NCBI RefSeq assembly: GCF_018977255.1
Contig: NW_024704742.1
Span: forward strand, 119,538,001-119,602,000
Origin: Callorhinchus milii
Taxonomy: Eukaryota
Length of the DNA stretch: 64,000 nucleotides
Direction of reading: 5' to 3'
The notes under the pieces were generated by a model, which saw only the letters and a list, made by a program, of their open reading frames with translations, searched no databases and was not told the DNA's origin. Of this stretch, positions 289 through 46,630 are shown in pieces (position 1 is the first letter of the stretch; each line of letters opens with the position of its first letter). The position numbers and the translations under genes were made by a program.

Positions 289-2215
289 CAATAGCAGCAG
301 CAAAATTACATTTGTATAGCACCTTTCATGGTGGGAGGACGTCCCAATGCGCTGGACAGACAGAGCTTCGGACCTGATTCGGGGGTCAGGATCGGGGAGG
401 GTGGAGGGCAGGGAGGGAAGCAGGGTGATTGAAAGCAGTCGAAGAAGAAGGTCTTGAGATGAGTCTTGAAGGAGGCAAGGAATGGGGCGAGTTGGAGGGA
501 TTGCAGGATAGAATTCCAGAGGGTGAGGGCAGAGTGACAGAAGACCTGCCCGCCAATATTGGAGCGAGCGAGGCAGGGGACATGAGCAGGCCGGAGCCCG
601 TTGAGAGGAGGGAGCGAACAGGATGGTAGGGCTTTAGGAGGTCGCAGAGGTAGGGGGGAGCAAGGCCATGGAGGGCTTTGAAGGTGAGGACCTTGAACTG
701 TATCCTCTGTGTGATGGGAAGCCAGTGGAGTTGGGGAAGACGATGGTGATAGGGTCACGGAGCCTGGTGCAGAAGAGGACACGGGCTGCAGAGTTTTGGA
801 TGATATGCAGCCTATGGAGGGAGGAGTTGGGGAGGCCAACGAGCAAGGTATTTGCATAGTCAAGCCTCGATGTAATGAATGTGTGTATGAGGGTTTCGTC
901 GGAGCCAGGCAATGTTGCGGAAGGTGGGGGAAGGCATTGCGGATCATAGCACTGATGAGGGGTAGAAAGGATAGTTGAGGGTCAAACAAGATGCCAAGAC
1001 TCCGGACTGGTTTAGTAAGGTGGAGTGTGCAACCATGGATGGTGATGCTGTCAGTGCCTGAGGTGAGGAGGTGCTGACAGGAGCCAATCAGGAGGCCCTT
1101 GGTCTTGTTGATGTTCAACTGAAGACAGTTAGCTCTCACCTCGGACTTGATGTCTGACAGAGATTCTGCCAGGATAGCAGTGGTCCTGGAGTCAAGGGTG
1201 GAGGCAGAGAGGTAGAGTTGGATGTCATCCGCATATATGTGGAATTTGATCCCATGTCTGCGGATAATGTCACCAAGTGGGAGCATATATTTATTGAAGA
1301 GGAGGGGACCAAGGACAGAGCCCTGAGGAACGCAACACGAGACGGTCCAGGGGCTGGAGGAGAAACTATTTGTGGAGATGAACTGGAAGCGGTGTGAGAG
1401 ATACAATCTGAACCAGTCAAGGACAGAGCCGTGAAGGTTGAGGTGAGAGGAGAGGCGGCGGATGAGGATAGAGTGATTGATGGTATCGAAGGCAGCGAGG
1501 AGGTCAAGGAGGATGAGGTAGAGGGAGCCCTGGTCGCAGACGGACAGAATGTCTGTAACTTTGACCAGAGCAGTTTCTGTGCTGTGGGCGGCACAGAAAC
1601 TCGATTGGAGGGGTTTGAGAAGAGAGTGGCGAGAGAGGAAGGAGTAAAGCTGGGAAGCACAACTCGTTCCAGGACCTTGGAGAGGAAGGGGAGGTTGGAG
1701 GTGGGCCGGTAGCTTGAGAGATTGGTCCAGGGAGGATTTTTTATGGAGTGATGATGGCCATTTTTAATGGGGTGAGAACAGTGCCAGTAAACAGGGAGAG
1801 GTTTATCATGTCTGTGAGTAGAGGAAGAAGGAGATGGAGCTGGGATGTAAGGAGAGGGGTAGTGAGAGGGTCGAGAGAGCAGGTGGTCAGTTTCATGCAG
1901 GTTATAGTGGTGGTGAGAGAGGAGTGGGAGACAGGTTCGGAGGTGTGGAGGGAGGGATGGGTAGGGGCCGGGTTGGGAGGGGGAGATGAGGAGAGTGTAG
2001 CAGATGGAATGACAGAGGCAGCTGAGTGGATCCCCTCAACTTTGGATTCAAGGAAGTCCAGCATCACCTCGCAGTTGGCATTTGAAGTGATGATGGGTGA
2101 GGCGATGATGGGTGAGGCGTGAGAGAGTGGGAGGAGGAGCTGGTTGGTGATGGAGAAGAGGCGCTTGGGGTAAACTTGACAATTGGGGAGGGAGGATGTT
2201 TGATCAAATAGGTGT
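289..2215 (-). mobile_element. L2-clade LINE, 5'-truncated and frameshifted (RT domain plus 3' tail)
   Basis: ORF fragments with VPQGSVLGPLLF, YADD and ITSRLDYANTLL; 3' stem-loop and degenerate (TTG/CTG)n tail near 290-350. Confidence 0.93.
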
Positions 2216-5200
2216 TTTGAAACAGAGCTCATATGTCAACAAAGACTTTGCTCTCAGATTGGCTACATATTAGATAATAAAAAAACAGGCTCTTACCAGT
2301 TGGTGCAGTGTTTATGAACCAGGTTAATCCACAAGCCACCTAATATGTTTCAATGGCCTGTAGGTAGTTGTGAATAAATCAGATTTATAAATGCAGCTGG
2401 CTGCCAGCGTCAGTTACATTTGAAGTTTTCTGGTAGGAACGCAAACAATGTTTCCTAATACATTTACTTGGTAAAACAGGTTATAAAAACCATTGTTACA
2501 ACAAAACCAGCTCTGGAATCACGCACTTACCTCCAGTGTTAACACGGTTGTCTTTTGTGATAGTCAGATTAAATCAATTTATGCATTTGTTCTGCATGTT
2601 TTGGAGGTAAATTGTAGCAATTTTGGCTAGGATTTGACAACAAATGTGTAAAATAAGCTAGACTGAGGCAGCCAGAATCATCCTGGAACACCATTGTCAA
2701 TAGTGAGCTCCACTTTGATTCTCTAAAGTTGCACTCCTTTTCATCTCATAATGGGGATCATAAAGTGACTTGATCTCAAGTGAGATCATATCCACTGCTG
2801 AAACTATGTCAGGCTCCAGGCTAGGAGAGATGGATGCAGATGCCTTATACATTCAGCGCAGAAGCGTACTATAGGTGGTGGGGGGGGGGGGGGGGTGTCG
2901 AGGACTTAAGGGAATTTGTCCCAAAGAAATCTCAAGAACTGATAAAGCAGTTGAAATGCATCATTTTTGGGACCACCTTTGAAATCTCGAAGATGATGCA
3001 ACAACAACCAACAACAACAAAATTACATTTATAGAGCGCCTTTCACGTCGGGAGGACGTCCCAAAGCGCTGATTTATAGTGAGATGTCGTAACTGAGATG
3101 TGCCAAACGTTCCTCTTGTTTATTTCCCTTCCTTCAAGTGCTAACTTGTAGAGCAGGGAGGCTATATGCTCGCCCTAGATTTTGGGTAAAACCAAGTGAA
3201 TCCAAAATCTGCCGTGTAATAAATTAGCATGTATAGGAACTGTAATTTATTTGAATACCGCCTGAAGGAAATGCTATGCTGTGCATTATCAAAGCTAAGT
3301 CAGAATACAATGACTTATAACAGGAATGTAAACATTAATATTTGTATGGAGACCAATTTATATTTATGATACATTCACCGATATATGTAAAACTAAAATT
3401 TCTCCCTCAGAAATGTGATAGATCTTCACTGTTGTTTTGTGTTCATGCCATCTACAGAGATTGATTTTGCAAGAACAAATTACTTCAGTAAATCACATAT
3501 TCTACTCTTTCCTCTTCCAGCATTTACTTCGAGCATACCCACCCCGTCTACCAAACTACAGAGAAGATATTTGTTTTTAAATCAGTATGTGGGATTTCTC
3601 TGGGATAACATTTTCATTACTGCTAGAAAAAATACTCATTTGCATCCTTTCCTGTTAGTTTTCTCCATGTATTAAATTATAAATAACTATTTTAATATTA
3701 CAGAATATTAAAAGCTAAAGCTTGCTCATACAGTTAGAAAACAGAATAACTGCAATTTGTACGTGCTTACATTAGAATTCTATACAATTAAAGCATGCAA
3801 CACAATATGAGAAGCTTGGTGTGAATTGGAATTGAATCTTGATATGAGACGGCAACTCATTTTTATAGCTCCCATATTTATGTGGTTACATAGATGTTTT
3901 CTAAAACAAATATTGTTTGAAAGTCTATTTTCTTACCAATGTGTGCCAGGCACTCAACAATTACAATGCTGAGGCAATATGATACAAGACACCAAGAAAA
4001 TTGCATCCTGTTTGCAACAATTGACCGGAAGAAAAATAGCACTGTACACAACAAACATACAGTGCAATTAAAAACAATTCTTGCAGATCATTGGATCACC
4101 TTCTTTATTACTTATTACAAATCATATCAGAAAGACCGGCTTGTGTCCTCCACACAAAATGATTACAACTGACATCAGGTACACACCTCAGTCTTAAATT
4201 TTAAAAGTATATTAAAAGATTGTGCAGAATTTTGGAAAATTAATTATCTCAGTCTTAATTACGATGACTCGGGAGTTTCAAACACATGATCCTAAGTTTG
4301 CTTTAGTCACAAACCTGCCAGCGTTCTACGTGCTAATAATGGCCAGGTCATCACAGATTGTTACATATATACAGTATGTTACAATAGGGTTCTTCTTTAT
4401 GGGGAGGACTGCCATTGAATTGATCTCAAATTTCAATTAAAGTCTCATTTAATTAATTTAATTTATTAATTAGTTTAATTCAATTAAGGGTTAGGGTTAG
4501 GGTTATGCTTGTGTGATACTCTTGACATTCTCCAAAAGGATATGAGTGAAAGTAAACATATCCCACAAGACCCTCCTCTTTGACTGTGCCTTCGGTCACT
4601 CTACTTGCCCCCATGTCCTCCACCCTCCCTGATCCTGAGCTCGGGTCCAAAACACTGATTGTCCATCACCTTGGGACGTCCTTCCAACTTGAAAGGTGCT
4701 ATACAAATGTAATTTTGTTGTTGTTGATGGTGCAAACAGTGTGGGAAACACTGTACACAGAATTAGATCAGGGCCAAAGTCTAATTTCCATGTGGTAACA
4801 AGAGAGATTCGGATGAAGAATGGACTTCGATCCGTTTAATCTCAATTTCCATAGAAGACATATTCCCATTACAACAGTAATTGCTTCACAATAAATCCTG
4901 TGAATGCTTTGAGACATTTTGACAGCGTCGTAAGGTGGTATAACAAATGTAAGGATTAACATTATTATTATTCAGACAATATGAAAGTTTTAATTTCTAA
5001 ATGGCTTCCAATTGGTGAAAAGATCTGGTAGTTTATTCGTAGATAATTGTCAGCTTGGTTTAGCTGGTAGCACTTTTGCCTCCGAGTCAGAAGGTTGTGG
5101 GTTCAACCCCATGTCACAGCTTTGAACTCAATCTAGGACGACAGGACGATGCAGACCTGCAGTCTCAGAGGTGCTGATGAACTGCGATATCCATATAACA

Positions 5201-9526: not shown

Positions 9527-9640
9527 TAAAACGCAAAATACTGCAGATACTGGAAAGCTGAAACAAAAACAGAAGTCGCAGGTCAGGCAGCCTCTATGGA
9601 GAAAGGAAAGTGGGTCAACATTTCGGGTCCATGACCCTTT
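9527..9640 (-). mobile_element. Short dispersed element of the same family
   Basis: Shares AAATACTG.AGAT...CTGAAACAAAAACAGAAG and GCAGGTCAGGCAGC with the other copies; no clear TSD. Confidence 0.75.
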
Positions 9641-10075: not shown

Positions 10076-13000
10076 GATCCAAACTTGAACGCTTCACATT
10101 CCTTGCACACGTAAACAGGGTCTTATCGCATTCAAAACAAAGGTGTGGACGACTACAGTTTAAAACATGAGGAGGAAACGTCAGCCTTTAACATCAGTTG
10201 AAAGCAGCTTGGAAAGCGCAGCCTTCAACGTCAGTTAAAGAAATGCTCTTTTTGAAGACTTGTCACCAACTGAAGTCCCAATCTCAAGCAGCAAGCATTG
10301 GTATTGGATATTTGGCTAAAAGGCACTTCTTCCCTTCCGGTCTAGTCATCACTATTATTCTGTACTCCAAGGGGCCTGAAAACTTCTCCAGTTACTATAA
10401 CGCAAGCCTACAATTACCTCTTTCGCTGCTAAAAAAAGAGAGCAGCCTTCGCGTTACACTTACGCTGTGTTCTGGTACAACACTCAGTTTTCAGTTGTAA
10501 CACTTTAGCCGAAGGTAAATCATCTATGTTATGTGGCATCTACCATTCTGAGGAACAGGGAGGGAAAAACATGTGGCTGTATATTCAAATAAGCCATACA
10601 CTGGGAAACCTGTGTACGCATACCAGGCAGCTATAGCATTTGCAGTTTTGATTCATCACTGGTTTCCATGTTAAATGCATAAAATTGAGTATGCAGTTTG
10701 ATATGTTGAAAATATATTTCCTGCTCCCACACTCCAAATCATGGATGTGAAACAATCCCTACAGTACTACTTAAAGCTGTTACGTCTGATCCCAATCCTT
10801 ACCTATGACCAGGTAAGAATGGAACCAGCACAAGAACAGACCTACAGGAAAGAACTTTCTGCTCAACAAATATAGGGCTATGCATACAAACTGCTTGTGC
10901 AATTGTACAACATGTAGACACTGCCCTTTAAGAAAGTAAAACATGCATTCTCCTTTTACAATATCTAGGGGGCACCGTTGAACAGTAAATCACAACAGTG
11001 AAGTAATTTCAGACACAGTACGTCTCTTACATCAATGGGAAACATTGTCAATATTAGTTCATAGCCGTACAACAGAAGCAGAGCAGCAGCAGAAAATAAT
11101 AGCTTATAAGCCCAGCATGAATAAAATACTTCTGCATTGGGAAAGAAAAATACACTTGGCTTAATGTTTTAATAATCCTTGCATTTGATATAGTGCCTTA
11201 TCATGTCTCCGAGACGTTTCAAAGTGCTTCACAGAATATACTGTAAAGTGAATTGACTATATTTTGTGGGCGAAACGCAGCAGCCATTTGCGCAGAGCAG
11301 CGTCCCACAAACAGTCGTGGATTAAGTGACCAAACTTTTATTTACCCTTTTATCTGTTCCAGTGTATTGGGTCTTTAAAGGGGTGTACCCATTAAGAATT
11401 GCCATCTTCCGAAGGTTTATTTCATGGAAGACCGCAGTCTGACATTTCAGAGGATAGTCTAGTGATGGAAAGCAGGGGGCCTCACAGCGCAAGTTCACTG
11501 AACAGTTACTGATGCCAGTAGGAGAACATATCCATTTCCACAAAAGGTCAAGCTGCTATGATAAATTTGACAGACACTGAAAAATTAAGGCTGTGGGGAT
11601 AATCAGTTTACACTGGAAATACTTCCATAGATTCCTCCCTCTTTAAGACAGTCTTCACAATTGATAGGCTAATTTCCCTCTAATATTAATTATATATGAC
11701 AATATTCTGGGAACTAAAGGGGATGGTCCTTTTTTTTCCTTGAGAATCTTTTAAAGCATTTTGATTAAAAACAGGATGTTCTACAACTTCTCTCCAGAGT
11801 TAAAATGGGGCCAAAGTTAACTTGTCAATAGCCAGAAAAGTTCAAAGAAAGTAATAAGTACAGAAAGATTCAATCCATTCTCCTTATCCAAGCTGCTGGA
11901 TGATGGTAATATAATCCTTGCATTTGTTATAGTGCCTATCAAATTTCACCCATAAAATATACAGTCAATTCACTTTATAGTATATTCTGCAAAGAACTTT
12001 GTGACGTCTTGAAGACGTGATAAGGCGCTATATCAAATGCGAGGATTATTATGTTTACGTCTTCTAGACGTCTCAAAGCTCTTCACAGAATATACTATAA
12101 AGTGAATTGATTGTGTTTCCTACACTGCTATCTCATTCCTACAAATTCAATTATTTTAGNAAAAAAATGTGAACTCTTTCACATCCAACTCTCGTCTCTC
12201 TCTCCAGAGGATCTTGTAATGCTGTCTTTTGTTCAAGTGAATCTACTGTTGTTGCATTATTCACATTCTGTGTCAGTTTATTCCACAAGCAATACAGAAC
12301 ATTCTCATGTGTGATGCCTCAATTCCTCATTCGCAGTTTCCTTCACATTGCTAATCTGTATTCAATGAAAGAATATTAGTCTCCATTTTACATGCTTGCA
12401 TCTTCTCTTCAACCTTACCTTTCTAATTACACTGCACTAACAACAATGTTGAGATGCAAACAAGCAACTGTTTAAGCAGCAAATCTATTCTCAAACGCAG
12501 GCTGAAAGTCCTGCTCGTTAGTTTAGTACTACTGGTTAAATTTGTACCAACGCAAAAGAGCTGATGGGAGAGATAGCTCTTTTGAATCATTGGAATCAGA
12601 AAGGTTAGGTAGGCACTTGAGGTCTAAGAATTAAAACCTCCTCTTACACGTTAGCTAGTCACACTGAAATCCATGCCCATTGTTATTAGCACAGGATTCG
12701 TGACCCATGTCTTGCTATACAATACAATTTATATTCATAAGATGCCTTTCTCCTTGGGAGGATGTCTCAAAGCGCGCAACAATTCTGGCCTGGCACCCAA
12801 GCTGGAAACGGAAACCGAGCGGGGTGAGAATGGGAAAGATGACTGAAAGCACAGTCAGATGATAGATATGCATGTCTTTTGACCGTACGTACGGTTACCT
12901 CCCCACCTACCCACCTCCCACCCCCCCCCCCCCAGCAGGGAGTCAGGCTCCACCATTGTTACACACTCCGAGATGCTATCTTGCGTGAAGGGCGCTAAAT

Positions 13001-14274: not shown

Positions 14275-14961
14275 AACAACAACAACAACAAGATTGCATT
14301 TATAGAGCGCCTTTCACGTCGAAAGGACGTCCCAAGGCGCTGGACAGTTGGGTCAGGACCCGAGCAGGGGGGAAATGGTCAGGGAGAGGGGAGGGAGGGA
14401 GCGAGGAGGGGGGAAATGGTCAGGGAGAGGGGAGGGAGGGAGCGAGGAGGGGGGAAATGGTCATGGTGAGGGGAGGGAAGGGAGGGAGGGAGGAGGGGGT
14501 AGAGAGTCGAGTGGGGAGCTGAAGGCACGGTTGAAGAGAAAGGTCTTGAGACCGGCCTTGAAGGAGGAAAGGGAGGAGGCGGCGAAGGCACTGGGGGATG
14601 GAGTTCCAGAGCCTAGGGGCTGAGAGGCTGAAGGCCCGGCCACCGATGGTAGGGCGGTTGGGGCGGGGGATGTGGAGCAGACCGGAGCCAGAGGAACGGA
14701 GGGTACGGGCAGGTAAATAGGGGTTAGTAGGTCGGAGAGGTAGGAGGGAGCAAGGCCGTGAATGGCCTTGTAGGTGAGGATGAGGATCTTGAATTCGATC
14801 CTCTGGGGGATGGGAAGCCAGTGGAGGCGAGTGAGGGTGGGAGTGATGTGGTCGCGAAGCCTGGTGCGGGACAGTACACGAGCTGCAGAGTTCTGAATGA
14901 CCTGCAGCTTGTGGAGGGAGGTGCCGGAAGGCCGGTGAAGAGAGAGTTCCCATAGTCCAGC
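14275..14961 (-). mobile_element. Young L2 LINE 3' fragment
   Basis: LQVIQNSAARVL and LHWLPIPQRIEFKIL motifs, 3' stem-loop and (TTG)n tail; nearly identical to the copies at 23 and 26 kb. Confidence 0.95.
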
Positions 14962-15544
14962 CATATCAAATGCCCCCTGGACGTCCCAAAATATATTATT
15001 TACTGTTTCTCTCTTGTCCACATCTGTTCTTAGCTCCTAAAAAATTCACTAGGCTCGCTTAGCATGACTTTGATTATCTCCAATACCTTTCCTTAACACT
15101 AAAGTCAAACCTCCTCCAGCTCTCCTTCAAAGTGCACTACAATACGACATTAGGGTTATCTCCTATCTCAAGGATAAGAGATGTTTCAGCCAGTGCTCTC
15201 GTTATTTCTTCCTTAACCATTAGGTTAAAGCAAACATTGACATTAATCATCATATTTGACAATTTGCCTATAATGCTGAAACATCTCAAAACATTTTAGT
15301 GGTATTGGTGTCAAGTGCTGCTACTGTGTATTTGTAGGAAAATAGCAACCATTTTCCGAAAGTCCCCCAAAAATCAATGAAGCGAACAAATAATTTATCT
15401 GGAGAATTGTAGGCCAGAACACCTTTCTCTTTTTACACCCACCTGAATAGGCAGACAGAACCTTGATTTAACATCTCATCCAAAGGATTGTAACAAATCT
15501 GATGCGAGGTAATGGTGCCCACCCAGCACAAGGCAATTAAGTTT

Positions 15545-16478
15545 GCAAAAAATGCACCAAATTGGGGGAAATCAGAGGAGGCAGCAAAGGTTGTATGTAT
15601 TATGCACATGGGCTGATGACTGGCAAGTGAAAGTTCCATACAGGTTAATGTAAGGCACTGCATAGTAGTAGTAAGAATGGGGAGCATATGTACTCCATGG
15701 ATGGAACAGAACTGCTCAGGGAAGCTGAAGAGATCTAGGGGTATTAGCTGATTCATTGTTCACCATGTCAAAGCAGTGAGAGGCAGCAACAAACAAGATA
15801 AACAGGAACAAAAACAGAAATCGCTGGGAACACTCAGCAGGTCAGGCAGCATCTATGGAAAAAGGAAAATGAGTCAACGTTTCGGGTCCACAACCCTTTG
15901 TCGTTAAACAAGATCCTGGGCTATATTGCCAAATGAGTTGAGCTTAGATCACCAAATGTCATACTCAACCTGTTCGGTGCCGTGGTCAGGCCACAGCTAA
16001 AGTGGTGCATAGAGTTCTTGTCATTGCAACATAAGCAGCCCAGGTCCAGAAGAGAACAAAGAGAATGATCCTCAGTGGTAGAATAAATGAGCTATGAGCA
16101 ATAATTTGTGAAGCTCGGGTTCTTCAGTCTTGAAAGGCGATAACTAGCTCATGCATATAGAGGCATGTAAGATTTCAAATAAGATCAAAAAAGTAATCTA
16201 AAACACTACTTTCAGATGCACTAAGATAGCAGAAGGAGTAGGTTAAGGACTGCAATGGGCAATTCTTGGACAGACTCCAGGAAGTATTTATTTAAACAGA
16301 GGATAATTAACAAATGGAACAGGTTACCAGAATTGGTTGTTGAGCGTTGGATACTGGACTCATTTTTTTTTAAAAAAAAGCTTTAATTATGTGATGGAAA
16401 GATGATAAGGTAAGGAATGATTAAATCAAACGGGCTGAAGGGCCCTCTTCATCCAAATTTGTTTAGTGATTTTATGAC
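15545..16478 (+). mobile_element. Old CR1 3' fragment interrupted by a 106-bp element
   Basis: DLGVL and VRPQLKWCIEF-like remnants; 3' end family shared with 31760-31965 and 54895-55080. Confidence 0.75.
15800..15905 (-). mobile_element. Short dispersed element, Penelope pseudo-LTR-like, with 9-bp target-site duplication
   Basis: Flanked by AAACAAGAT at 15791-15799 and 15906-15914; homologous to 9527-9640 and 32607-32720. Confidence 0.8.
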
Positions 16479-19509: not shown

Positions 19510-20392
19510 AAAGATTGTAACAGGATATAGATAGGCTTGGGGAGTCGGCAAGTAGGTGGCAGATGGAATTTAATGTGGGGAAGTATGAAGTTATTCACCT
19601 AGGTAGCAAAAATAGAAAAAACGATTATTTTCTAGAGGGGGAGAGATTAGATAGTGTTAGTGTTCAGAGGGATTTGGGTGTCCTTGTACACCAGTCTCAA
19701 AAAGTTAGTTTGCAGGTGCAGCAAGCAACTAAGAAGGCGAACGGCATGTTAGCATTCATTGCAAAAGGTTTAGAGTGCAAGAGTAGGGAAGTTTTGCTGC
19801 AACTGTATTGGGCCTAAGTGAGACCTCACCTAGAATATTGTGTGCAGTTTTGGTCTCCTTATTTAAAAAAGGACATACTTGCCTTAGAGGGGGTGCAGCG
19901 TAGATTCACTCGGTTAGTTCCTGGGATGAGGGGACTGACCTATGAGGATAGGCTGAATAAACTAAGGCTGTATTCTCTAGAGTATAGAAGAATTAGGGGA
20001 GATCTTATTGAAACATATAAGATTCTTAAAGGGCTGATAAAGTAGACACTGAGGGTCTGTTTCCCCTGGTAGGAGAATCTATAACCAGGGGTCACAGTCT
20101 TAAAATTAAGGGTCAGCCTTTTAGAACAGAGTTGAGGAAACATTTCTTCACTCAGAGGGTAGTGAATTTATGGAATTCACTACCCCAGAAGGCTATAGAT
20201 GCTCAGTCCTTGAACATCTTCAAGGCTGAGACTGATAGATTTTTAAAAAATAGAGGGATTAGGGGATATGGGGATAGGGCAGGTAATTAGAGTTAGGTCA
20301 GAAGATCAGCCATGATCTTATTGAATGGCGGAGCAGGCACGAGGGGCCGAATGGCCTACTCCTGCTCCTAATTCTGATGTTCTTATGTTCTA
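19510..20392 (+). mobile_element. CR1 LINE 3' fragment with 3' UTR
   Basis: [22 protein letters not shown] and [10 protein letters not shown] motifs; tail GGGCCGAATGGCCTACTCCTGCTCCT followed by ATGTTCT-type repeats. Confidence 0.95.
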
Positions 20393-22624
20393 GAATGGAT
20401 CGGAATTATTCTAGAAAACAGAGAGTTTTGGAAGATTATAACAAATGCATGTAACATTTCTTCATTCATTTTTTCTAATACTCCAGGGCTGGAAACCATC
20501 ACAACGTGGAGATTTGTCTGACTTTCGTATCACTAAATGTATCTACTGCATTCTTTTAAAAAATTAATTCCTGTACATTTTCCACTTCATTATTCTCTGT
20601 TCTTTGCTGTATCGCTGGTAGCAAACAGTCCATCTCCTTTGTGAAGGCTGAAGCAAAATATTGTCATGACAACATCCTCAAGATGATGTAGAACATCAAA
20701 GGAAAAATATACTAAAAAGAAAACAAAATGAAATGGATACCCAGCAGAGAGTACACTGAAAGGGAATATTTTTATGGAATGCATAATATAAAAATAATAC
20801 AGGCAGGTGGTTTGTATTCAGTTGAATGCTGTCTAGTTCACTTGCAGGTTTACCTGTTAGAAAGGACACAGCTGTCAGCTTCACACAGGGAAGGTGCATT
20901 TTATTACAAGTTGCCATGAATTCAACCATTACCCAAGTTTAAAGATCCTGAGTGTTGCAGATCAGGGAGAAAGAGGCATTGCTGGTTAGTGGAGTACCAG
21001 AGACTGAATGTACCACTTCATGTCGCAAGAAGCTGAGTGGAAGGACAAAGCAATGTGTTTCCCGAGGTCATGGAAGTTCAAAAGAATTAACAATGCCAGC
21101 TATCAATACTTACAGAGTCAGTAATCAAATAGCCTATGTCTGGAACAAGCTTGGCCCTCCATCTCAACGGAAACAAGTATATACTTGCCTGAGAAGCCTT
21201 GAATTTTAAGGTTCAAAAGTTATATCTGCCTTGGCCAGTAAGCATCAATGAGATTGAATCACCAGTTCCCATTTACTTTGCATCAAATCTATGAAATCAA
21301 TGGAAGAAATAAAAATCCAAAGGCCTGGGCATCACAACAGGGACTTGAGATTCAACAAGCGAAATCCCAGTTCTGATGCAGAACTTTAGATGTCAGAGTT
21401 TTACAGGTGAAGTGAAGAAATCCTTGATTAAATAAAGCTTCAAAAAGACTAGTCTGTTCAGAAACGGCTTGTGAGAATGGCGCTCTCATGCTGATATATT
21501 CTGTTGCAATGACCATTTCTGAGTTGTAATTGGCATGATGATGTTTGCCACCCACTAGTATCTGTTTATTTATTTATCACCTAAAGGGGAATTGTCACAT
21601 GTCTTTAATCTCTCTGACACGCTACCCTGCTTGGAAGGCGCTATATAAGCGCAAGTTGTTGTTGTTGTTGGACGTAAAACCCTTTCTAAATATGGCTAGC
21701 ATTTAAGGTCTGTATCTCAAAGAGAGTGGACAATGATTGCATTAAAGTCTTACAAATCCTTGAGTATAAAAAAATGAAACGAAACTTCTTGAAGCATCTC
21801 TTCCAAGTTGGGCCAAAACATTACACATCTTAATGGAAAAGATAAGAAGGCAGAATAAGAGATCTGTGGAAAATAGATTGATAACCTTCCCTTCACAGGC
21901 AGTGGAATTCCTACAACCTTAATATAATAGTACAATCCGAAGGAATCTCAGATGTAACACACTGCCGGATGGATAAAATCACATACCTGGATAATGTCAC
22001 ATGCATGCACGCACACATCTGAAAAGGTTTTGTTGACATCACAATTCCACTCCACTTCATATTGTTGCATATTGCCAAGAATCCTGACACTATAACCCTT
22101 ATCAACATTTCCCCCTACTAAAGGGAATTGGTTTTCCAGTAATGGAAATAGTTTGCTTGTGATCTTTCAAAAAATGTCTTGCTCAGGTAAATAAAGGTTT
22201 TAGAAGGAATCGTTTTCTTCTATTTCTAGAGTGAATACATTGAACCAGAAGTCCTCCTCCTGTTTTGTTCCCTTTTAACTATTTTTGCACAGATCAGGTG
22301 TTTTAAGTCCAAATTAAAAATAAAATCAACTGGGCAGCAATCAATCCCCTTCACTCCTTCTCAAATGCACCCAATCGGAAATTCAGTGGTTTAGTGGAAA
22401 CAGGAGTAATTTGAATGAAGAAGGCCCTCTGGATGTTTCTGATCACATCCCTTAGAATATCCATCCTACCCTTTCCCTATCAGTCTGTTTTTTGAACAAG
22501 TCCAGCTGCCTGAACCCAGCCATCCTTCCTGGCAAACTGTTCCTATCATTAATTAACCTCTGTGTAACAAAAAAACTGTCCTGAAATTGTCCTTTAGAAC
22601 TTATGTCTCTGTGTTCTACACAAT

Positions 22625-23968
22625 CAGTCGGGTTTCCGTGCTGCCCATAGCACAGAAACCTGCCCTGGTCAAGGTCACCAATGACATCTTGACCATCTGC
22701 GACCAGGGCTCCCTCTGCCTCCTCGTCCTCCTCGACCTATCGGCCGCATTCGATACGGTCGACCACGCTATCCGCCTCCACTGCTTGTCCTCCCACCTCA
22801 ACCTTTAAGGCCCTGTCCTTGAGTGGTTTAGGTTGTACCTCTCCCACCGTCTTCATTTTGTTTCCACAAACCGCTTTTCCTCCGGCCCCCGCACTGTCTC
22901 GTGCGGTGTCCCTCAGGTCCCCTCCTCTTCACCCTCTATATGCTCCCCCTTGGTGACATCATCCGCAGACATGGGGTTAACTTCCACATGTATGCGGATG
23001 ACACCCAACTCTATCTTTCCTCCTCTACCCTCAACTCCACGACCACCGATGTCCTGACAGCTGCCTGTCCGACATCGAGTCCTGGTCGAGAGAAAACTTT
23101 CTTCAGCTCAACGTGCGCAAAACTGAGGCCCTCCTGATTGGCTCACGTCAGCGCCTCCGCACCTCAGGCGCTGACAGCATTAGCATCCAAGGCTGCACTC
23201 TCCACCTCTCAAAGCCAGTCAGGAACCTCGGGGTTCTGTTCGACCCTGAGCTGTCCTTTCTCCCTCATATCCGCGCCACAACTGGCACCGCCTTCCATCA
23301 CCTCCGAAACATCGCCAGACTACGGCACTACCTCACCCCTCACGCTGCTGAAACTCTGGTCCACTCCTTTATCACCTCAAGGCTGGACTATGGGAACTCT
23401 CTCCTCGTCGGCCTTCCCGCCACCTCCCTCCACAAGCTGCAGGTCATTCAGAACTCTGCAGCTCGTGTACTGTCCCGCACCAGGCTTCGGGACCACATCA
23501 CTCCCACCCTCGCTCGCCTCCACTGGCTCCCCATCCCCCAGAGGATCGAATTCAAGATCCTCATCCTCACCTACAAGGCCATTCACGGTCTTGCTCCCTC
23601 CTACCTCTCCGACCTACTATCCCCCTACTTACCTGCCCGTACCCTCGATTCCTCTGGCTCCGGTCTGCTGCACATCCCCCGCCCCAACATCGGTGGCCGG
23701 GCCTTCAGCCTCTCAGCCCCGAGGCTCTGGAACTCTATCCCCCAGTGCCTTCGCCGCCTCCTCCCTTTCCTCCTTCAAGGCCGGTCTCAAGACCTTTCTC
23801 TTCGACCGTGCCTTCAGCTCCCCTCCCGACTCTCTACCCCCTCCTCGCTCCCTCCCTTCACCCTGACCATTTACCCCCTGCTCAGATCCCGACGCAACTG
23901 TCCAGCTCCTTGGGACATCCTCCCGACGTGAAAGGCGCTCTATAAATGAAATCTTGTTGTTGTTGTCT
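22625..23968 (+). mobile_element. Young L2 LINE, 5'-truncated
   Basis: [21 protein letters not shown] and ITSRLDYGNSLL motifs; ends with AAAGGCGCTCTATAAATGAAATC(TTG)n. Confidence 0.96.
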
Positions 23969-25937
23969 TGTTGTCTCACATAATTTGACAAAGGTAAAAC
24001 ATTCTATAGGACTCCCTCATAGAACCATAGAAAATTACAGTGGAGAAGGCCATGAGGACCATTGTCCAGGTATAAAACCTCCTAGAAGTAGTCATTTATT
24101 ATGTTCACTATCTTCTGTTCATTCTCTTTCTCAACATCCTTTAGGGTTTAAACATCTTTTAACTTTTTACTATTATAATAAAAAAAATTTAAGCACTTGC
24201 TGCTATATCCCTTTCTAGAGAATAGCGAGAGGGAGTGGGAGAGAGTGGGGTAGAAGAGATAAGAGAAACAAAATGAGAGAAAGGAGAGCGAGAGAAGATA
24301 ATTTGTGCTTTCTTAAACTCCTAAATGGCAGCTGTAAAACAAAGGCCTAGAAATGAGATTTAGAGAAATAATGGCATATAAACCATTTGACCCACTGAGC
24401 TTGTGTTGTTGCTAGCTCTACCATTGTAACTAACTCCAGTCTCAGTCCCCTTTTCTCTCTCTCCTGACCTATTTACATTGTTAATTGTGTGTCACGGTAA
24501 TGAAGTAGAGAATTGAAGTCCCAAAACAAAGTGTACAAAATATTTTGGGAAGAGGAGGGGTATATATATACATATATAAAAAAAATTAAAACTGGAATTT
24601 TTAAAACCAGATTTTAACTGGGTCAGGAATAAATTCCTCAACAAATTTGCCAAATGATGGGTTTGAATTAGAATTTTGTTTACACAATTTTCGTTTAGCA
24701 ATTCAATATGAAATAGAAATAAATCTAATTTATACAAAACTAGTTTTCTAAAACTCCCCCCAGCCCCCAGTGTAATTTAGGAGAGAATAGTTTGCACATA
24801 CATTAGTGCAACTGTTGTTAAATCTTGATATTTAGAGATTTCTTGCTTCGGGTTAGGATATCCAAGCAACAGCAGTTAATGGGGGCATTATGCTAGACTT
24901 GAACAATACAACAAGTCCCATTTTCTAAAATAATAATTAAAAAATAATGAAGAATAAATAATGTTTTCTTAGGACCCGGAGGTGTCAATTGAATGTTTGT
25001 ACCTATAATATTTTTTGTCACTTAAATTACATTGCCAATTAGTTACTGTATGAATATACGTGGCTATGACTTTCACACATTATTCTGTCTCTGGCTTCAG
25101 CATGAAATACCAAAGACTAGCCATAAGCAACGTGCAAAGCATTCAAGTGTCATGTACAGTATGTTTATAATTAACTGCCCTAATGACAGCACTATTTCCA
25201 ATTCCATGACAGAATCCAGACCCCTCACTTGTCTGTTACTGCAGTGTACAGAGTTATAACAGGATTATTTTTAAGCCCGTCCAACATTTCTGTTCATATG
25301 ACTGTCACAATTCTTGCATAGCGGGACATTAATTCTCCGAGGATTGGTCTTTCTGCTGCTGGAAGAGGGGAGAGAGAGGAAAGCACATCATCTGTAAAGG
25401 GTTGGAAGATAACTGAATATTCTGCTCGATTACCTTTGGGGGATCAGGAAACATTAGCCCACAAGCTTACCTAAGGCAACTGAATGGCTGGACTAGTCTA
25501 TGATAAAATAGACGTCCATAGATTGTTTATAGTATGTGGAAGGAGGAGAAGCTGTGGGGCAAAAAATCATTTTTCATCTTTGACCTTCCAATATGGAGAC
25601 ACTCAAAACAATAGCCAAAATTATATCATGAAAAATGAACAGAGCATTTATTGCATAAGATTAGCTTTAATGACACACATAGTAACCTAATGAAGAAAAA
25701 CTTCTGGTATGTGCAAATTTATTGGTACAATTACAAGACTTTGTACAGTAGAATATATATCTGCACAACAATTATCCATTGATCCACATGCGGCAGCAAG
25801 ATACCAACACAAAACACCACTGTGCGCATGTGAAGTTCTACACGACACTCAAGGTTTCTGGAAACATACTGCCCCAGCTATACCAAGGGAAAGGATGAGC
25901 ATAATCATACAACAGTCAGTATAACTACAGATGGAAC

Positions 25938-26177: not shown

Positions 26178-27440
26178 TAGCACCGTTAGGAAGGATACAT
26201 CAGCGATGGAAAGAGTACAGAGTAGGTTTATGAGGATGATCCCAGGGCTGGCAGGTTACTGTTATCAGGACAGATTGCATAAGTTGGGCTTTTTTCCCTT
26301 AAGAGACAATTAAGTGGGGGAACCTAACAGAAGTGTTAAAGCCAGTCAGGAACCTCGGGGTTCTGTTCGACCCTGAGCTGTCCTTTCTCCCTCATATCCG
26401 CGCCACAACTGGCACCGCCTTCCATCACCTCCGGAATGTGGCCAGACTACGGCACTACCTCACCCCTCACGCTGCTGAAACTCTGGTCCACGCCTTTATC
26501 ACCTCAAGGCTGGACTATGGGAACTCTCTCCTCGACGGCCTTCCCGGCACCTCCCTCCACAAGCTGCAGGTCATTCAGAACTCTGCAGCTCGTGTACTGT
26601 CCCGCACCAGGCTTCGGACCACATCACTCCCACCCTCGCTCGCCTCCACTGGCTCCCCATCCCCCAGAGGATCGAATTCAAGATCCTCATCCTCACCTAC
26701 AAGGCCATTCACGGCCTTGCTCCCTCCTACCTCTCCACCTACTATCCCCCTACCTACCTGCCCGTACCCTCCGTTCCTCTGGCTCCGGTCTGCTCCACAT
26801 CCCCGCCCCAACCGCCCTACCATCGGTGGCCGGGCCTTCAGCCTCTCAGCCCCGAGGCTCTGGAACTCCATCCCCCAGTGCCTTCGCCGCCTCCTCCCTT
26901 TCCTCCTTCAAGGCCGGTCTCAAGACCTTTCTCTTTGACCGTGTCTTCAGCTCCCCTCTCGACTCTCTACCCCCTCCTCGCTCCCTCCCTTCCCTCCCCT
27001 CACCCTGACCATTTCCCCCCTGCTCGGGTCCTGACCCAACTGTACAGCGCCTTGGGACGTCCTCCCGACGTGAAACGCGCTCTATAAATGGAATCTTGTT
27101 GTTGTTGTTGTGTTTTAAATTATAAAACAGTTTGACAAGGTTAACATAAATAGGTCATTTCCACTGGTTGGGGAGTCCAGATACAAAAATCAGATAGCAA
27201 CTGGGGGATCTAAAAGAGAATTTAGGAGGAACTACTTCATTCAGAGTAGTGAGATTGTATGCCTCAAGCAGCAGTTAAAGTAGATGCTTTCAAGAGGAAG
27301 CTTGACTTTCACATGATGAAGAGAGGAACTGAAGGATATGGGAGGAAGTAAAGGAATGGATGGAGAGTATAAACACCGGCATGGACTGGTTGGGCTGAGC
27401 GATCTGTTTTTGTGCTGTACAGTCTGTAAATTTTTCTATG
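26178..27440 (+). mobile_element. CR1 3' fragment split by an L2 insertion
   Basis: ERVQSRFMRMIPGL-like coding remnant before 26337 and CR1 3' UTR after 27111; homologous to 59300-59760. Confidence 0.85.
26338..27110 (+). mobile_element. Young L2 LINE 3' fragment nested in a CR1
   Basis: Near-identical to the 23210-23960 part of the previous copy; CR1 sequence is interrupted at ~26337 and resumes at ~27111. Confidence 0.95.
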
Positions 27441-31059: not shown

Positions 31060-31737
31060 TTCACTAGACTCAAAGTGTCAGCACAGACAAGGCAATAAAG
31101 AATGAAAATAGAATCCTTGGCTTTGTGTGCAGAGGAATGGAGTACAAAAGTAGGGAAGTAATGTTGCATTTATATAAAACCTTGGTTGGACCACATTTGG
31201 AGTACTGTGTGAGGTTCTGGCCGCCCTACTACAGGAAGGATATTGTACCATTGAAGAGAATACAGAGTAGATCGTTCCCAGCATGAGTGGACACAGCGAT
31301 CAAGAAAGAATGGACAGGTCAGATCTTTCCTCTCTGGAGATGAGTCAATTGAGAGGGGATCTGACAGATAGAGGTGTTTAAAATTATGAAAGGATTCAAT
31401 AAGGTAAACATGAATTGGCTGTTTCCAATTGTTGGGAATTCCAAAATGAAAGGGTATAAATATAAAGTAGCTAATAACAGAACTAAAAGGAAGTTTAGGA
31501 ATAACTTCTCTATGCAGAGGCTGGTGAGAATGTGGAATTGGCTGCTGAAACTGTAATTCAAGCAAAAAGTCAACATATTTAAAAGGAAACTTGATGTCTA
31601 CATGAGGGAGAATAAGGTAGAGTGATGTGGGAGACGGATTAGGAGGGTTGAGGTTAATGTGGAGTATAAACACTAACATGGACTAATTGGGCCAAAGGAC
31701 CTGTTTCCATGCTGCAAAGTTCTCTGTAATTCTGTGT
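31060..31737 (+). mobile_element. Decayed CR1 3' fragment
   Basis: LYKTLVGPHLEYCVRFW and FKIMKGFNKVN remnants plus CR1 3' UTR. Confidence 0.88.
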
Positions 31738-32606
31738 CATCAAACTCCATCATGACAATTTCAGGAGAGTTGTCGGAAAGTATTTCTTTGCCCAGAGTGC
31801 AATGAATAGAACAGGCTTACCAGAAAGGGTGTTTGAGGCCAGGACACTAAATTTATTTCAAGAACAGTTTAATACTGTGATGGGATGACCATATGGTAGG
31901 TATTTTGGAAGGATGGGAGCAAAGGGTTAAAGGTTGTTTTAATCCAAACTTCTCTTGTGATCTTGAAGAACAAAAGAATGAAAACATTAAGATTAATTCA
32001 GTCAAAAAAAGGCTCATTTAGAGAAAAACACAGTGCAGACTTGACGGGCCAAATGGCTGGTTTAAGGTCCGCCTCAAGCTCTCTCTCGTTAACCACATCT
32101 TCAATCATTCTCTCACGCCACCCCCACCCCTCCCAAATCCAACCCCCAGCTCAGGTGCAAATCCTCGATTGTCCAGTCTTTTGGGATGTCCTCCTGACAT
32201 GAAAGCGCTGTGTAAAAGAAATTTGTTGTTCTGTGCTGTAACTTTATAATTCTAATCCACCATAAGTGGTGAGGTACCATTCCCCAGAGAATCTTCTGCA
32301 CAACAGGCAACTCTGTGGGCAGCCACCCTGTGTTCACACCATTGGACAACTTTAGGATGCCATGTATAAGGAAAACAACTCAGAGGTAGGTTGAAAAAGG
32401 AGTTTACAAAGTTTGCTAAATGCTCTGATGTTTAGCTCAATTACTTTTGAGGATGCAGAGACATTTTCTATTACCTACTTCTCACAAGATAAAATAAGGA
32501 GCACGATAAGGATGTTAAACCGCATTGTGTGGAATGAATTGGCTTGATGGGCTGATTAGCTTTGCTCATTCCATGCTTTTTCTTCTTAAAAGCGCACTAA
32601 CAGATA

Positions 32607-32720
32607 AAACACAAAATACTGAAGATGCCGGAAATCTGAAACAAAAACAGAAGTTGCTGGGAATACTCAGCAGGTCAGGCAGCATCTATGGAGAAAGGAA
32701 AGTGAGTCAACGTAATAATA
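32607..32720 (-). mobile_element. Short dispersed element of the same family with 13-bp target-site duplication
   Basis: Flanked by GCACTAACAGATA (32594-32606) and GCACTAATAGATA (32721-32733); core CTCAGCAGGTCAGGCAGCATCTATGGA. Confidence 0.8.
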
Positions 32721-33646
32721 GCACTAATAGATAGATGGGTAGCACTGACCATGTATTCTTAGAAATCGTGATACATTACATGGGAAACAATAATCTACAA
32801 TGTCGACCGTTAGTTAAGTTTAATCAGACTTGTCACGCAATTTAAGATGAGTTCCATTTGGCCCAAGAACCCAACCACATTGTTTGGCATCAATTTCAGC
32901 CTCTTTTCTTTTTCTTCAATGACGTCTGGCTTTATCAAAAATCTGATATCAAGGGAAGGAAGCAGCTTTAAGTCTTTTTTTCTCCTGATATTTATCAGTC
33001 ATACATGGCAACACATTACGGTCCAGGAATATTGAGACATCCAATGAAATATCACAAACTGCAGATAAAAAATAGACGATTTCAGTGCTGCACGGATTTC
33101 ACAATACAAAATTGTTCAGGTAATGCGCAAAAGATGTTGAGCTCTTCATATTTCAATCTGATACACTCCATTACTGGAAATGTTTTTAAAAATAATTGCT
33201 CCACACTGTTTCCCCCCCCACTCCACACATTCCTTTGACAACTGATAATCAGCCTACTAACAAGCAACACAAACACAGCACAAGTGCTGTTTATGGTTTC
33301 AGTCAGCGAGTGGCTGAAATGCACAGAAACCTTACATCTGTCTTGTCTTTCAGCCACTAAGAAACCTACTATAACAGAATTATGTTTCTCTTAGTCTGCC
33401 TAACTTGAGAAGGTTAAAAGTCATTCTACATGTATATAACCAGAGCTCACAAGCACAGTACGGCAGAAGCTAAAGCAATGTGTCAGCTATGTATATAGGC
33501 GAGACACTGTCTGGCCTATATAAATGCAAGTTGTTGTTGGTGTGCAACTTCTCACTACAAAGTATTGGTAAGCTTCCCATTGTTTGTATACCTGAGATCA
33601 TTAATGTATCAGAAGAATCACTGTTTTCAGTGACATTCGCAAGACA

Positions 33647-34030
33647 GGATGAATGTAGCTCAGTGGTTAGAGCACTTGCCTCGCAAGTGAGAGACCTGGG
33701 TTCCCAGCGCTTCCCGGGCAGGGTGAAACGTTGGGCAAGTTTCCTTACTCCACACGCCTCTGTTCACCTAGCAGGAAGTAGGAACCCAGTTGTTAGTCGA
33801 TTGGTGGATTGCTTTTCCTGGGCTAATAATTCCTTCAACAAAAATAATAAATAAATAAATTGGTCACTCAATCCACAACTGTCGGTGGCACACTGCTGTG
33901 CACAATTGGCTGCCACATTTCGCCCACAAAATATACAGTCAATTCCCTTTACAGCATATTCTGTGAAGCGCTTTGAGACGTATCAAAGATGTTATAAGGC
34001 GCTATATCAAATGCAATGATGATTATTATT
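33647..34030 (+). mobile_element. Full-length tRNA-derived SINE (family A)
   Basis: Head GGATGAATGTAGCTCAGTGGTTAGAGCAC with A box and degenerate B box; 3' GCTGTGCACAATTGGCTGCC Deu-like block; tail AAGGCGCTATATCAAATGCAA(TTA)n. Other copies at 46335-46630 (-), 11170-11335 (-), 29695-29848 (+), 61710-61875 (-), 63920-64000 (-). Confidence 0.9.
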
Positions 34031-34944: not shown

Positions 34945-35732
34945 CTGAAAGTTAAAATAATGTCAAGTCTAAATCAGAAGATTGCCTTTCCCCATATATC
35001 ATAACTGTAGTACTGTATATGGATGTAGCAAACACAAAAGAGTAGTAGGATTTGATGTTTCTCAGTTAAATGATGTTACCAGCTGGACACAGACATTTAG
35101 TGTTCATCAGCAATTTAAGTCAGAATGCACTGCCATAAGACACGATTAGAATAGTTATCTCATAACTCAATGTCTGCAACATATCATCATTTAACAATTA
35201 TATGAATCATTCAAAGCAAGTTGAATTTTGCAAAATGTGGGGATGGTTTACTTTTAATAGGCTGTGCTCTCTTTAAATGTTCCACTTGCTGCATATTTCA
35301 TGCTAAAAGCTGCATTCTGTAGTATATTTGCAAATATAAAAACATTAGCAAATATTTTAAAACATTTCTGTTGAGTTTCTGGAGTTGAAAATCTACAGTG
35401 CTTAAAATATCAATATAACTTAATAAAAGTTTAACAATTCACAATCTTAAAATTGATATACTAAAATGGCTACTACTACCCTGTTGCAATTCTTTCCCCT
35501 TTCAGTGAAAGGTGTGAATTTTAAAGGCAGCGACATATCACATCAGGATATAAATAAATAATAGAATTTACAGGAAGTTATATTATAAGCCATTGCATTT
35601 AAAAATCTTTCACTGAAAGGAGAAAGAATTGCAGTGATTTCAGTGAGGAAAAGAACAATCTACTGAGTGAATTATTGTACTGTATTCACGAGACTTCTCC
35701 AAGTAGTATAGGGATGCAGAATTATAGATTAA

Positions 35733-36337
35733 TAACAATCCTTACATTTGATGTAGTGCCTTGGCACATCAGAAGGTCATCTTAAAGCACTTTGCAGGAT
35801 TTACTGTAAAGTTTAGTGTCTTTGTATTTTGTAGCAGAACACAGCAGTGTCCCACAAACAGTCATGACATAATGACCAATTTCATCCAGGGGATTGTTGG
35901 CCTAGGACAATGGGAGGAAGTCTCTTTTCTTTTTGAATAATGCCATGGGATGAAAAACATCTACCTGAACAGGCAGACAGGATCTTGGTTTAATGTCTCA
36001 TGAAGGATGCCACCTCCAATAGTGCAGCACTGTATTGGAGTGTCAAATTAGAGTTTGAATTCAACCCCTCAACCTCGGCCCCTCCTTCCCCATCTTCAGG
36101 TCGTGCCTGAAGACTTTCCTTTTCGACCACACCTATGGTCACCTTCCCCTAACCCTGGCTCGGCCTTGGGCTCCACCAATGTTAAGCTCTCTGAGACGCC
36201 GCCCGGTGTGGAAGACACTATATAAGTGCAAGTTGTTGTTGTTGAGTTAAAAATCCTGAAATTGGGGGAAATGGGGCTTAAACTCACAACCGCCTGACTC
36301 AGAGGTAAGAATGCAACCAACTGAGCCAGGCTGACAC
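35733..36337 (-). mobile_element. Family B SINE interrupted by a plus-strand L2 tail (about 36062-36244)
   Basis: SINE tail at 35733 and head at 36270-36337 flank an L2 3' end terminating in (TTG)n. Confidence 0.8.
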
Positions 36338-37613: not shown

Positions 37614-38311
37614 TGCTACACACAGAGAAGCGGAATATGTACAGTTTCAAGAAATAAAAACAGGAGGAAATTCTGATTTTTTTGTAAAAAAAAATATTAA
37701 ATTGTGCAGCAATATTAAATCCAAGTAAAAAAATCGCTATCTGCTGATGATATGTTCAATCGGCGCTGGAAAAAAGGTAAGATCAATACCAGATCAGTCA
37801 CTTTGTTTTCTATCAAATCAGCACAGAGTTGCTTGCCATGCTGGCAGAATGTACAAATTGTTCCAAGGCCAAGGATTCAGATTTCATGTGGGAGCCTAAA
37901 AAGCAATTATACACTTCAGGTCCCACATTTTATAGTTAAGTGAATGAAAATCACGAGCCACAAATCTGTATTTCAGCTTTAAACCACAGCAATCAGCAAA
38001 TGCATTGAGAACACAAAGCACCATAAATCAGCCAGTTCAATGTCAAGCAACCTTCAAGTGATAATGAATTCCTTTTACTGATGGTCTAATACTGTGAAAT
38101 AGACCATTAGCCTTACTTTATTTATTTTATTGTATTATCCATTTACTGCAAAAGAAATGTCTATTTTACAACTAGTTCCCATTTGATACTATGAATCCAA
38201 TAAGTACTGGAAACATTAGGTTTTAACAATTTTCAGTCCAAATGTAGAAATCGATTAGAGATAGTAATATAAAAGTATTAAATAGTTAAGACCAATTCAA
38301 AATATTATAAT

Positions 38312-38732
38312 AAAATCCTTGCATTTGGTATAGGGTCTTTTCACATCGTTGAAACACCTCAAAGCACTTCACAGCGTATGCTGTAAAGTGTAGTGATGGT
38401 GTATTTTGTAGAATGAGCAGCTAATTTTGCACAGTGATGTCCCACAAACAGCCATGAAGTGAATGCCCAATTTTATCCAGGATTGTTGTCCAGGAAAGTG
38501 GGTGAATCTCCCTTCTCTTTTCGAATAGTATCATGGAATCTTTAACATGCAAGTGAACAGGAAGATAAGATGTCGGTTAACATCTCATCCGAAAGCCAAC
38601 AACTCCAACAATACAGGACTCTCCTAATACCGACCTGGAGTGTCAGCCTGAACGTTGAGCTCAAAGTCCAAACGTGGGGCTTGAACCCACAACCTTCTAA
38701 CTCAGAGGCGAGAGTGCTACCAACTGAGCCAG
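38312..38732 (-). mobile_element. Family B Deu-domain SINE, near full length
   Basis: Reverse-complement homology to 37212-37613; head CTCAGAGGCGAGAGTGCTACCAACTGAGCCA. Confidence 0.82.
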
Positions 38733-46334: not shown

Positions 46335-46630
46335 ATAATAAAAATTGTTGTATTTGATATAGCACCTTCTAACGCCATTGAAACCTCTCAAAGCGCTTCA
46401 CAGAATATATTGTCAAGTGGATTGACTGTATTTTGTGGGTGAAACACAGCAACCAATTGTGTACAGCAGTGTCCCACAAACAGTGGTGGATTGAGTGACC
46501 ATTTTTTTAAAAAGGGATTATTGCCCCTGGAAAGCAATCCACCAATTGACCAACAACAAGGTTTCTACTTACTGCTAAGTAAACAGAGGCATGTGGAGAA
46601 ACTTGCCTAAGGTTTCACCCCGCCTGTGAA
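46335..46630 (-). mobile_element. Family A SINE lacking most of the head
   Basis: Reverse-complement match to 33715-34030. Confidence 0.88.

Follow-up and report, generated by a model that had tools for sequence, protein, structure and literature searches.

The window analysed here, a stretch of 64,000 nt from Callorhinchus milii, is repeat-rich, has 40% G+C and holds many L2/CR1-type LINE pieces as well as SINEs. Among these repeats lie short inserts of a different family, and an earlier interpretation of this DNA (the sequence-only reading) took them to be truncated insertions, or a SINE-like derivative, of an element that carries a hammerhead ribozyme. The locus raises two questions: which element left these inserts behind, and does that element carry a hammerhead? 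The coordinates of the features discussed below are collected in Table 1.

Three homologous inserts in the window

The sequence-only reading described three homologous short copies and a fourth, decayed copy at 61405-61460. The three copies, referred to here as A, B and C, were recovered by blastn across the window with E values of 1e-18 to 2e-27. Their alignments confirmed the homology, with 69/74 identical letters between B and C, 56/63 between A and B, and 85/94 between A and C, a pairwise likeness of 89-93%. The proposed fourth copy was background (nhmmer E 7.7). Its local score of 48 compares with best scores of 48-55 for six shuffled queries, and six other sites in the window reach similar scores of 47-49.5. 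A look-alike at 3728-3755 was rejected at a background score. A profile built from A, B and C detected nothing else in the window better than E 0.3.

The borders assigned to the inserts held as coordinates, but family homology stops earlier, at 15902 in B and at 32713 in C. This leaves 3 (B) and 7 (C) unrelated letters between the end of the homology and the target-site duplication (TSD). In B, the family pile-up of same-species contigs spans 15800-15902, and the three letters that follow are either untemplated or mutated.

TSDs had been claimed for two of the copies, one of 9 bp and exact and the other of 13 bp with one mismatch, and both were found, at B and C, respectively. At random positions, repeats of the B type occurred in 7/2000 cases and repeats of the C type in 2/2000. 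No TSD was found for copy A. The claim that one copy splits a LINE was also upheld, as B interrupts a single LINE reverse transcriptase (RT) C-terminus, which we take from its motif to be of the CR1 type. By tblastx, the right flank of B matched other LINE pieces of the window at 19749-19856, 31116-31217 and 59176-59283 (E 7e-7 to 9e-5). Six of the 15 contig joints listed run from the left flank of B into its right flank without the insert. Since these six joints are single contigs with other letters between the flanks, they represent paralogous LINE copies and not an empty allele. An exact empty allele of B was not seen among the joints listed, and contigs, which drop rare variants, are silent on fixation.

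Table 1. Coordinates of the inserts and associated features in the 64,000-nt window.
Feature	Position	Strand	Description or basis
Copy A	9527-9640	minus	Stub with tail; 14-nt internal deletion
Putative hammerhead remnant, copy A	9617-9639	minus	Spans A9 to H17, with a perfect 5-bp stem II and GAAA; U in place of C15.2
Decayed LINE RT C-terminus, left of insert B	15730-15790 (left border approximate)	plus	Reading frame and joints across the insert
Left TSD, copy B	15791-15799	plus	9 bp, exact repeat of 15906-15914
Copy B	15800-15905	minus (element sense)	Inserted stub without the outer 26-33 nt (tail) of A and C
3' arm of stem I (GACU), copy B	15872-15875	minus	Hammerhead numbering
Putative hammerhead remnant, copy B (minimal type I)	15876-15902	minus	Sequence compared with loose ends of other copies and with the consensus of PMC4209133, Fig. 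S3
Non-family letters at the 5' junction, copy B	15903-15905		3 letters; other copies differ behind 15902
Right TSD, copy B	15906-15914	plus
Decayed LINE, right of insert B	15915-16023	plus	tblastx to other LINE pieces of the window
Left TSD, copy C	32594-32606	plus	13 bp, one mismatch
Copy C	32607-32720	minus	Stub; family homology 32607-32713
Outer ~30-nt tail	32607-32639	minus	Present in A and C, missing in B
A/T-rich letters unrelated to the family, copy C	32714-32720
Right TSD, copy C	32721-32733	plus

Hammerhead remnants in the window copies

The minus-strand motifs that the sequence-only reading had quoted from A and B stand where it had placed them. The window has just two instances, one in A and one in B, of a 5-bp stem closed by G-C with GAAA-NN'-U-H behind it, compared with 0.1 in 20 dinucleotide shuffles; this pattern was set post hoc and, A and B being homologous, it amounts to one observation and not two. 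For minimal hammerhead ribozymes (min-HHRs) in the pseudo-LTRs of metazoan Penelope-like elements (PLEs), the published consensus is CUGANGAH-G..C-GAAAN-NUH (Cervera and De la Pena 2014, PMC4209133, Fig. S3). Read against this consensus, the B remnant shows, in order, G5-A6-N7, an A in place of G8, A9, one unpaired A, stem II at 15884-15896, GAAA, a palindromic CG, U16.1 and H17, while C3 and U4 are absent. The change at G8 looks like a CpG-type transition, inferred from this comparison, and the odd GACAA of copy B is predicted to be what remains of CUGACGA after removal or replacement of C3-U4. The stem drawn for B in the sequence-only reading needs a small correction: by homology with A, stem II is GGGUU/GACCC around a 3-nt loop.

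Stem II with a G10.1-C11.1 opening and followed by GAAA is present in both A and B, and it appears in the centroid structures of both inserts. Folding of whole inserts was no better than that of shuffled sequences (z 0.95, -0.01 and -0.75). The 15.2-16.2 pair and the cut site read CG-UU in B and C and UG-UU in A. By hammerhead numbering, cleavage in copy B is predicted between 15876 and 15875, and the 5' arm complementary to B's stem I arm is seen only in other genomic copies of the family.

In agreement with the sequence-only reading, none of the window copies has an intact core: a scan for CUGANGA with 0 or 1 mismatch before such a stem gave no match anywhere in the window. That reading had also proposed a scan with the Rfam hammerhead models. 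These gave no match at E values up to 10 in the whole window or in 15780-15940, where the copies tested are without the core. With neither a core nor an Rfam match, the window alone cannot decide the hammerhead claim. The core is lost or mutated in A, B and C, and all three should be inactive.

A complete core in other genomic copies of the family

Contigs of four public runs labelled as the same species were aligned to 15660-16050 at 80% likeness, comprising 7041 contigs from run X1, 7843 from X2, 2504 from X7 and 9 short ones from X11. Runs X1 and X2 belong to one study, X1 may be the source sample, and X7 is possibly an RNA run. The summed depth in X1 peaked at ~700,000 over insert B, compared with 5-12 on most long single-locus contigs and at most ~1,900 on the LINE flanks, although summed contig depth is not equivalent to copy number. 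This high depth, in line with the presence of three copies in 64 kb, indicates that the family is very abundant. Truncation points cannot be read off the depth profile, which tracks the private mismatches of copy B.

Among the loose ends listed, contigs diverging from B continued as CATCAGAACT behind 15898 (66 contigs in X1 and 66 in X2), as GATGACCTTTCGTCAGAACT behind 15888 (78, 97 and 41 in X1, X2 and X7) and as AGAACTG behind 15902 (106, 133 and 39 in X1, X2 and X7). On the minus strand these loose ends read CUGAUGA or CUGACGA, then one unpaired A, and then stem II. Other copies have AGUU ahead of the box, and this arm pairs with the GACU located behind the cut in B and C, giving a stem I of 4 bp, one of them U-G, as judged by eye. 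The presence of CTGANGA upstream of the stem had been set beforehand by the sequence-only reading as the test of its hammerhead claim, and the core was found there in other genomic copies. On the evidence of these contigs, the family carries a complete minimal type I hammerhead that matches the published Penelope-element consensus and whose cleavage is predicted.

One contig record, present in X1 as well as X2, carries A-U in place of G10.1-C11.1, a single two-sided change. The family has at least two stem II variants, which differ in the opening pair and at N7, and this suggests several subfamilies. Past the ribozyme, agreement among the loose ends is 0.44-0.55 over the 30 letters shown, in which no long upstream body can be seen. 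The class that diverges behind 15898 has ~12 more common letters past stem I in both X1 and X2, and in the class that diverges behind 15888 the runs X1, X2 and X7 have nothing in common past stem I. Steep truncation, several subfamilies and a short master element would each account equally well for the poor agreement past the ribozyme.

Ends, tail and inverted pairs

The distance from the cut site to the 3' end is 69 nt in B, 102 nt in C and 90 nt in A, the copy with the 14-nt deletion. At the other end, all three copies stop within ~30 nt of the predicted cut, as the sequence-only reading had noted, with the ends of A, B and C lying 23, 27 and 5 nt, respectively, on its 5' side. A role of self-cleavage in setting the ends of these copies is not supported, as all three run over the cut site by these distances. 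Since each of them holds sequence on both sides of the cut, the template RNA was uncleaved there.

The tail of 26-33 nt, putatively optional, is missing in B, only one copy of three, and is thus a weak sign. In the region 32607-32672, the outer ~30 nt form an imperfect direct duplicate of the adjoining ~30 nt, with a score that 0/2000 shuffles reached. The two alternative 3' ends, ~30 nt apart, fall at like places in the two duplicate units and sit in U-rich tracts, and we infer that the duplicate would offer two like start sites to the RT. Loose ends before 15807 agree only at 0.41-0.46.

Two further features were observed on the minus strand of this part of the repeat. A short ATG-started frame (32608-32685), found in B and C, begins just 3' of the ribozyme and extends across the tail. 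Between the ribozyme and the tail (32640-32675) lies a pyrimidine tract ending in CAG that, by eye, resembles a 3' splice site. The ORF of other PLEs has its first codons in the pseudo-LTR and tail, and PLEs keep introns near the pseudo-LTR.

Nine of the 15 contig joints listed change strand. Both ends lie inside the repeat in eight of them, each of which is present in one contig per run. In these eight, one breakpoint falls at 15837-15866 and the other at 15883-15902, where 15902 may only mark the limit of B's homology. Their geometry is that of head-to-head (5'-to-5') pairs of copies elsewhere in the genome, with one partner more truncated than the other. Copies A, B and C have no inverted partner copy in the window, and the 12 tandem-repeat (TRF) rows of the window include no tandem array at any of them.

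The 5' ends of the three copies fall within a span of 35 nt. Under a geometric truncation model, this has a P of ~0.003-0.004 or less, in a post hoc test that involves three copies and depends on the model. The clustering is a hint of RT stalling in the ribozyme or of a short non-autonomous master element. Truncation seems to be concentrated inside the ribozyme, which is possibly new.

Search for coding sequence and outside relatives

No GIY-YIG domain was detected with Pfam in 244 of the 268 window frames of at least 60 aa and in three shorter frames at B; the scan left out 24 alternative frames over L2 copies. The same scan detected RVT_1 in three frames and tubulin in one. That the frames scanned include no ORF with both an RT and a GIY-YIG domain is expected of TSD-bounded stubs.

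Searches beyond the window gave little. Scans with the motif pattern returned 0 matches in viral contigs and 0 in prokaryote genomes. The sole metagenome match, an isolated 22-nt stretch without flanking homology, was attributed to chance. Two frames, from A and C, used as queries in word-index protein searches returned nothing. A HMMER search with the 39-aa frame of C gave three hits, two of low complexity; the third (71 aa, 68% identity) is a short translation of this repeat from a different record, without an RT or endonuclease. No long protein with the beginning of the ATG-started tail frame was found with HMMER, and the Atlas search returned unnamed clusters only, below 0.9.

The sequence-only reading had considered that the unit might turn out to be the end of a LINE or SINE. 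In the window it is not. The LINE and SINE ends there show no similarity to the unit, the best non-family blastn match having an E value of 0.26, and it has no tRNA-like head, with no match to Rfam tRNA at A, B or C.

Other features of the window

L2/CR1-type LINE copies are located at 309-1763 (-), 14275-15036 (-), 22557-23970 (+), 26338-27127 (+) and 52900-53143 (+). Some are 94-98% alike, and one has a 485-aa open frame with RVT_1; these copies are a young LINE family. A second abundant family (D2, D3, D6, D13) is located at 11170-12116, 33654-34030, 35728-36000, 38305-38590, 46334-46600 and 61711-61884. It has a tRNA-like head (Rfam tRNA E 0.006 at 33654-33709) and a LINE-like tail, includes an inverted pair at 11170-12051 and is a tRNA-derived SINE. 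At 59995-60255 (+) lies a decayed alpha-tubulin fragment, corresponding to residues ~101-154 (Pfam E 1e-6, PDB E 4e-17), which has substitutions at conserved sites and adjoins an L2-type copy. It is probably a piece of a processed pseudogene. A 28S rRNA-derived fragment at 61950-62170 (+; Rfam LSU E 1e-5 at 62026-62128) seems to be partly repeated at ~128-nt spacing and is either a rearranged rRNA retro-copy or an rRNA-derived repeat.

Origin of the inserts

Copies A, B and C are probably dead, severely 5'-truncated 3' stubs of an abundant, endonuclease-bearing PLE. The proposal of the sequence-only reading is supported by the core in other genomic copies and by the layout of the published consensus. 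Between its two options, truncation and a SINE-like derivative, the first is better supported, given the ragged 5' ends, the head-to-head pairs and the optional tail. The family acts like a PLE end and showed four PLE traits; its membership is putative. Against a PLE origin count the lack of a GIY-YIG hit in the frames scanned, the lack of an Rfam hammerhead match, whole-insert folding no better than that of shuffles, the poor agreement of the loose ends past the ribozyme and the tight clustering of the 5' ends.

Going by the PLE literature, insertion of such stubs probably proceeded as follows. The GIY-YIG endonuclease of the PLE would nick A/T-rich DNA, and its RT would prime on the nick and start copying at one of two internal sites. 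Counted from the ribozyme cut, these sites would lie ~70 and 100 nt downstream, and the choice between them would correspond to the optional tail. Synthesis on uncleaved RNA would halt early, after 100-130 nt and here within the ribozyme, and repair would add a few letters in joining the 5' end and would leave a TSD. The parent ribozyme would cleave only as a dimer or with the help of proteins. The TSDs of 9 bp, 13 bp or none, the ragged 5' ends and the additional letters at the 5' joins, 3 in B and 7 in C, are consistent with this course of events. Run-off at the 5' start of the RNA is not favoured as the source of the 5' ends. In D. virilis Penelope the RNA starts at nt 371 (PMC2377424), well upstream of the ribozyme at nt 496 (PMC4209133), whereas the ends seen here lie inside the ribozyme.

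Two readings keep the link to PLEs and go further. One, which we put forward tentatively and think rather doubtful, is that copying by the Penelope RT begins in the tail and is arrested by the uncleaved hammerhead in its folded or dimerised state. The genome would then have filled with 100-130-nt stubs, in the tens of thousands, with their 5' ends piled up in the ribozyme, and some of these stubs may have become a self-propagating SINE-like derivative. The other, in our estimate unlikely, is that the family derives from a PLE pseudo-LTR as a non-autonomous unit, SINE-like or a retrozyme monomer, in which a master of ~140-160 nt (ribozyme plus tail) has its own transcription and uses PLE proteins in trans, and the copies are slightly 5'-clipped. 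All three copies are 100-115 nt long and stop in the ribozyme, and a short master would explain why their 5' ends fall so close together; against this, those ends are ragged relative to the cut and none of the copies keeps the whole core. Past the core, loose-end agreement drops to 0.44-0.55 in no more than 30 letters, and the three runs of the 15888 class have nothing in common after stem I; both observations also suit such a master. Low agreement is, however, equally expected from steep truncation or several subfamilies, and the 66 contigs each in X1 and X2 share their ~12 further letters beyond stem I. Pseudo-LTR sequences suffice for trans-mobilisation in rotifers (PMC3846280), and animal retrozymes, proposed to be derivatives of PLE pseudo-LTRs, were found in the sole chondrichthyan sampled (bioRxiv 10.64898/2026.07.22.740005), but no tandem array is present at any of the window copies.

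Readings without a PLE fare worse. It is very improbable that the family is a hammerhead repeat unrelated to PLEs that was mobilised by the L2 or CR1 machinery dominant in the window. All RT hits in the window come from L2/CR1-type frames, but the unit is not similar to the LINE and SINE ends there, its 3' end is without the short-tandem tails of those repeats, and head-to-head pairs and an optional tail are traits of PLEs. A merely coincidental likeness to a hammerhead in an anonymous repeat is scarcely credible: the core had been predicted before it came to light, and it stands at exactly the required place in tens to more than 100 contigs per run, with two variants at the free position N7 and a matching stem I arm, and this outweighs, in our judgement, the lack of an Rfam hit, the folding z-scores, which are not significant, and the broken cores in the window.

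Three dead stubs mean little alone. The family is useful material because it is very abundant and because the role of the PLE hammerhead is unsettled: this role has been called unclear (PMC8557442), and ribozyme cleavage was unnecessary for insertion in vitro (PMC11167929). The 5' ends of thousands of copies, once mapped, would reveal whether the RT ever uses cleaved RNA as a template and whether it is stalled by the ribozyme. If the RT-stalling reading is true, the family would be a genome-scale, position-resolved fossil record of PLE hammerhead action in the retrotransposition cycle.

Comparison with known systems

Min-HHRs in PLEs and dispersed truncated copies of them have been in print since 2014, and this kind of repeat is already known. 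In the searchable literature, taken without Repbase/Dfam and subscription papers, we found no paper that joins the hammerhead ribozyme, cartilaginous fish and Penelope, and the family may be undescribed there. According to Cervera and De la Pena (PMC4209133), most min-HHRs are dispersed single motifs, probably of truncated PLEs. The family resembles these in having CUGANGA and an unpaired base, GAAA, a palindromic CG for stem III, a UH cut site and a stem I of 3-5 bp, and also in occurring as dispersed single motifs with several sequence families per genome. An extra base after A9, G10.1-C11.1 and a palindromic 15.2-16.2 pair are described in that paper as features outside its search descriptor, and the family has all three. 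Unlike the min-HHRs presented there, the window copies end inside the core, and the link of the family to a PLE ORF is putative. Among the motifs of Fig. S3, in the form available, no cartilaginous-fish row was found.

Animal non-LTR retrozymes (PMC7229834; bioRxiv 10.64898/2026.07.22.740005) are similar to the family in being non-coding, with a type I hammerhead, TSDs of more than 4 bp, a proposed PLE origin and dispersed monomers. In contrast, retrozymes as described in these sources are tandem units of 150-450 bp with complete, mostly canonical ribozymes and circular RNAs, whereas A, B and C are single, ~110 bp long and have broken minimal cores. The window, with its 12 TRF rows and broken cores, shows no retrozyme-like tandem arrangement of the family.

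Endonuclease-bearing (EN+) PLEs of the Penelope/Poseidon and Neptune clades share with the family a strong 5' truncation, an optional tail and inverted 5'-truncated pairs, as well as variable or missing TSDs, A/T-rich targets and copying from uncleaved RNA. Adjacent inverted 5'-truncated PLE copies and an optional tail of 30-40 bp were described by Craig et al. 2021 (PMC8557442), and inverted 5'-truncated copies with a 31-bp tail by Arkhipova et al. 2013 (PMC3846280); in the accounts given in both papers, PLE TSDs are of 8-10 bp or missing. In the anole element studied by Frangieh et al. 2024 (PMC11167929), the RT starts 111-118 nt into the ORF and the cut site is at nt 26, which places the start ~85-92 nt 3' of the cut. 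The tail of that element lies between two RT start sites, and uncleaved RNA was the main substrate in vitro. The tail differs between the two, being an AC-rich stem-loop in the anole element and an imperfect duplicate whose ends lie in U-rich tracts here. Like EN+ PLEs, the family has its hammerhead near the 3' end, with the cut site 69-102 nt from that end.
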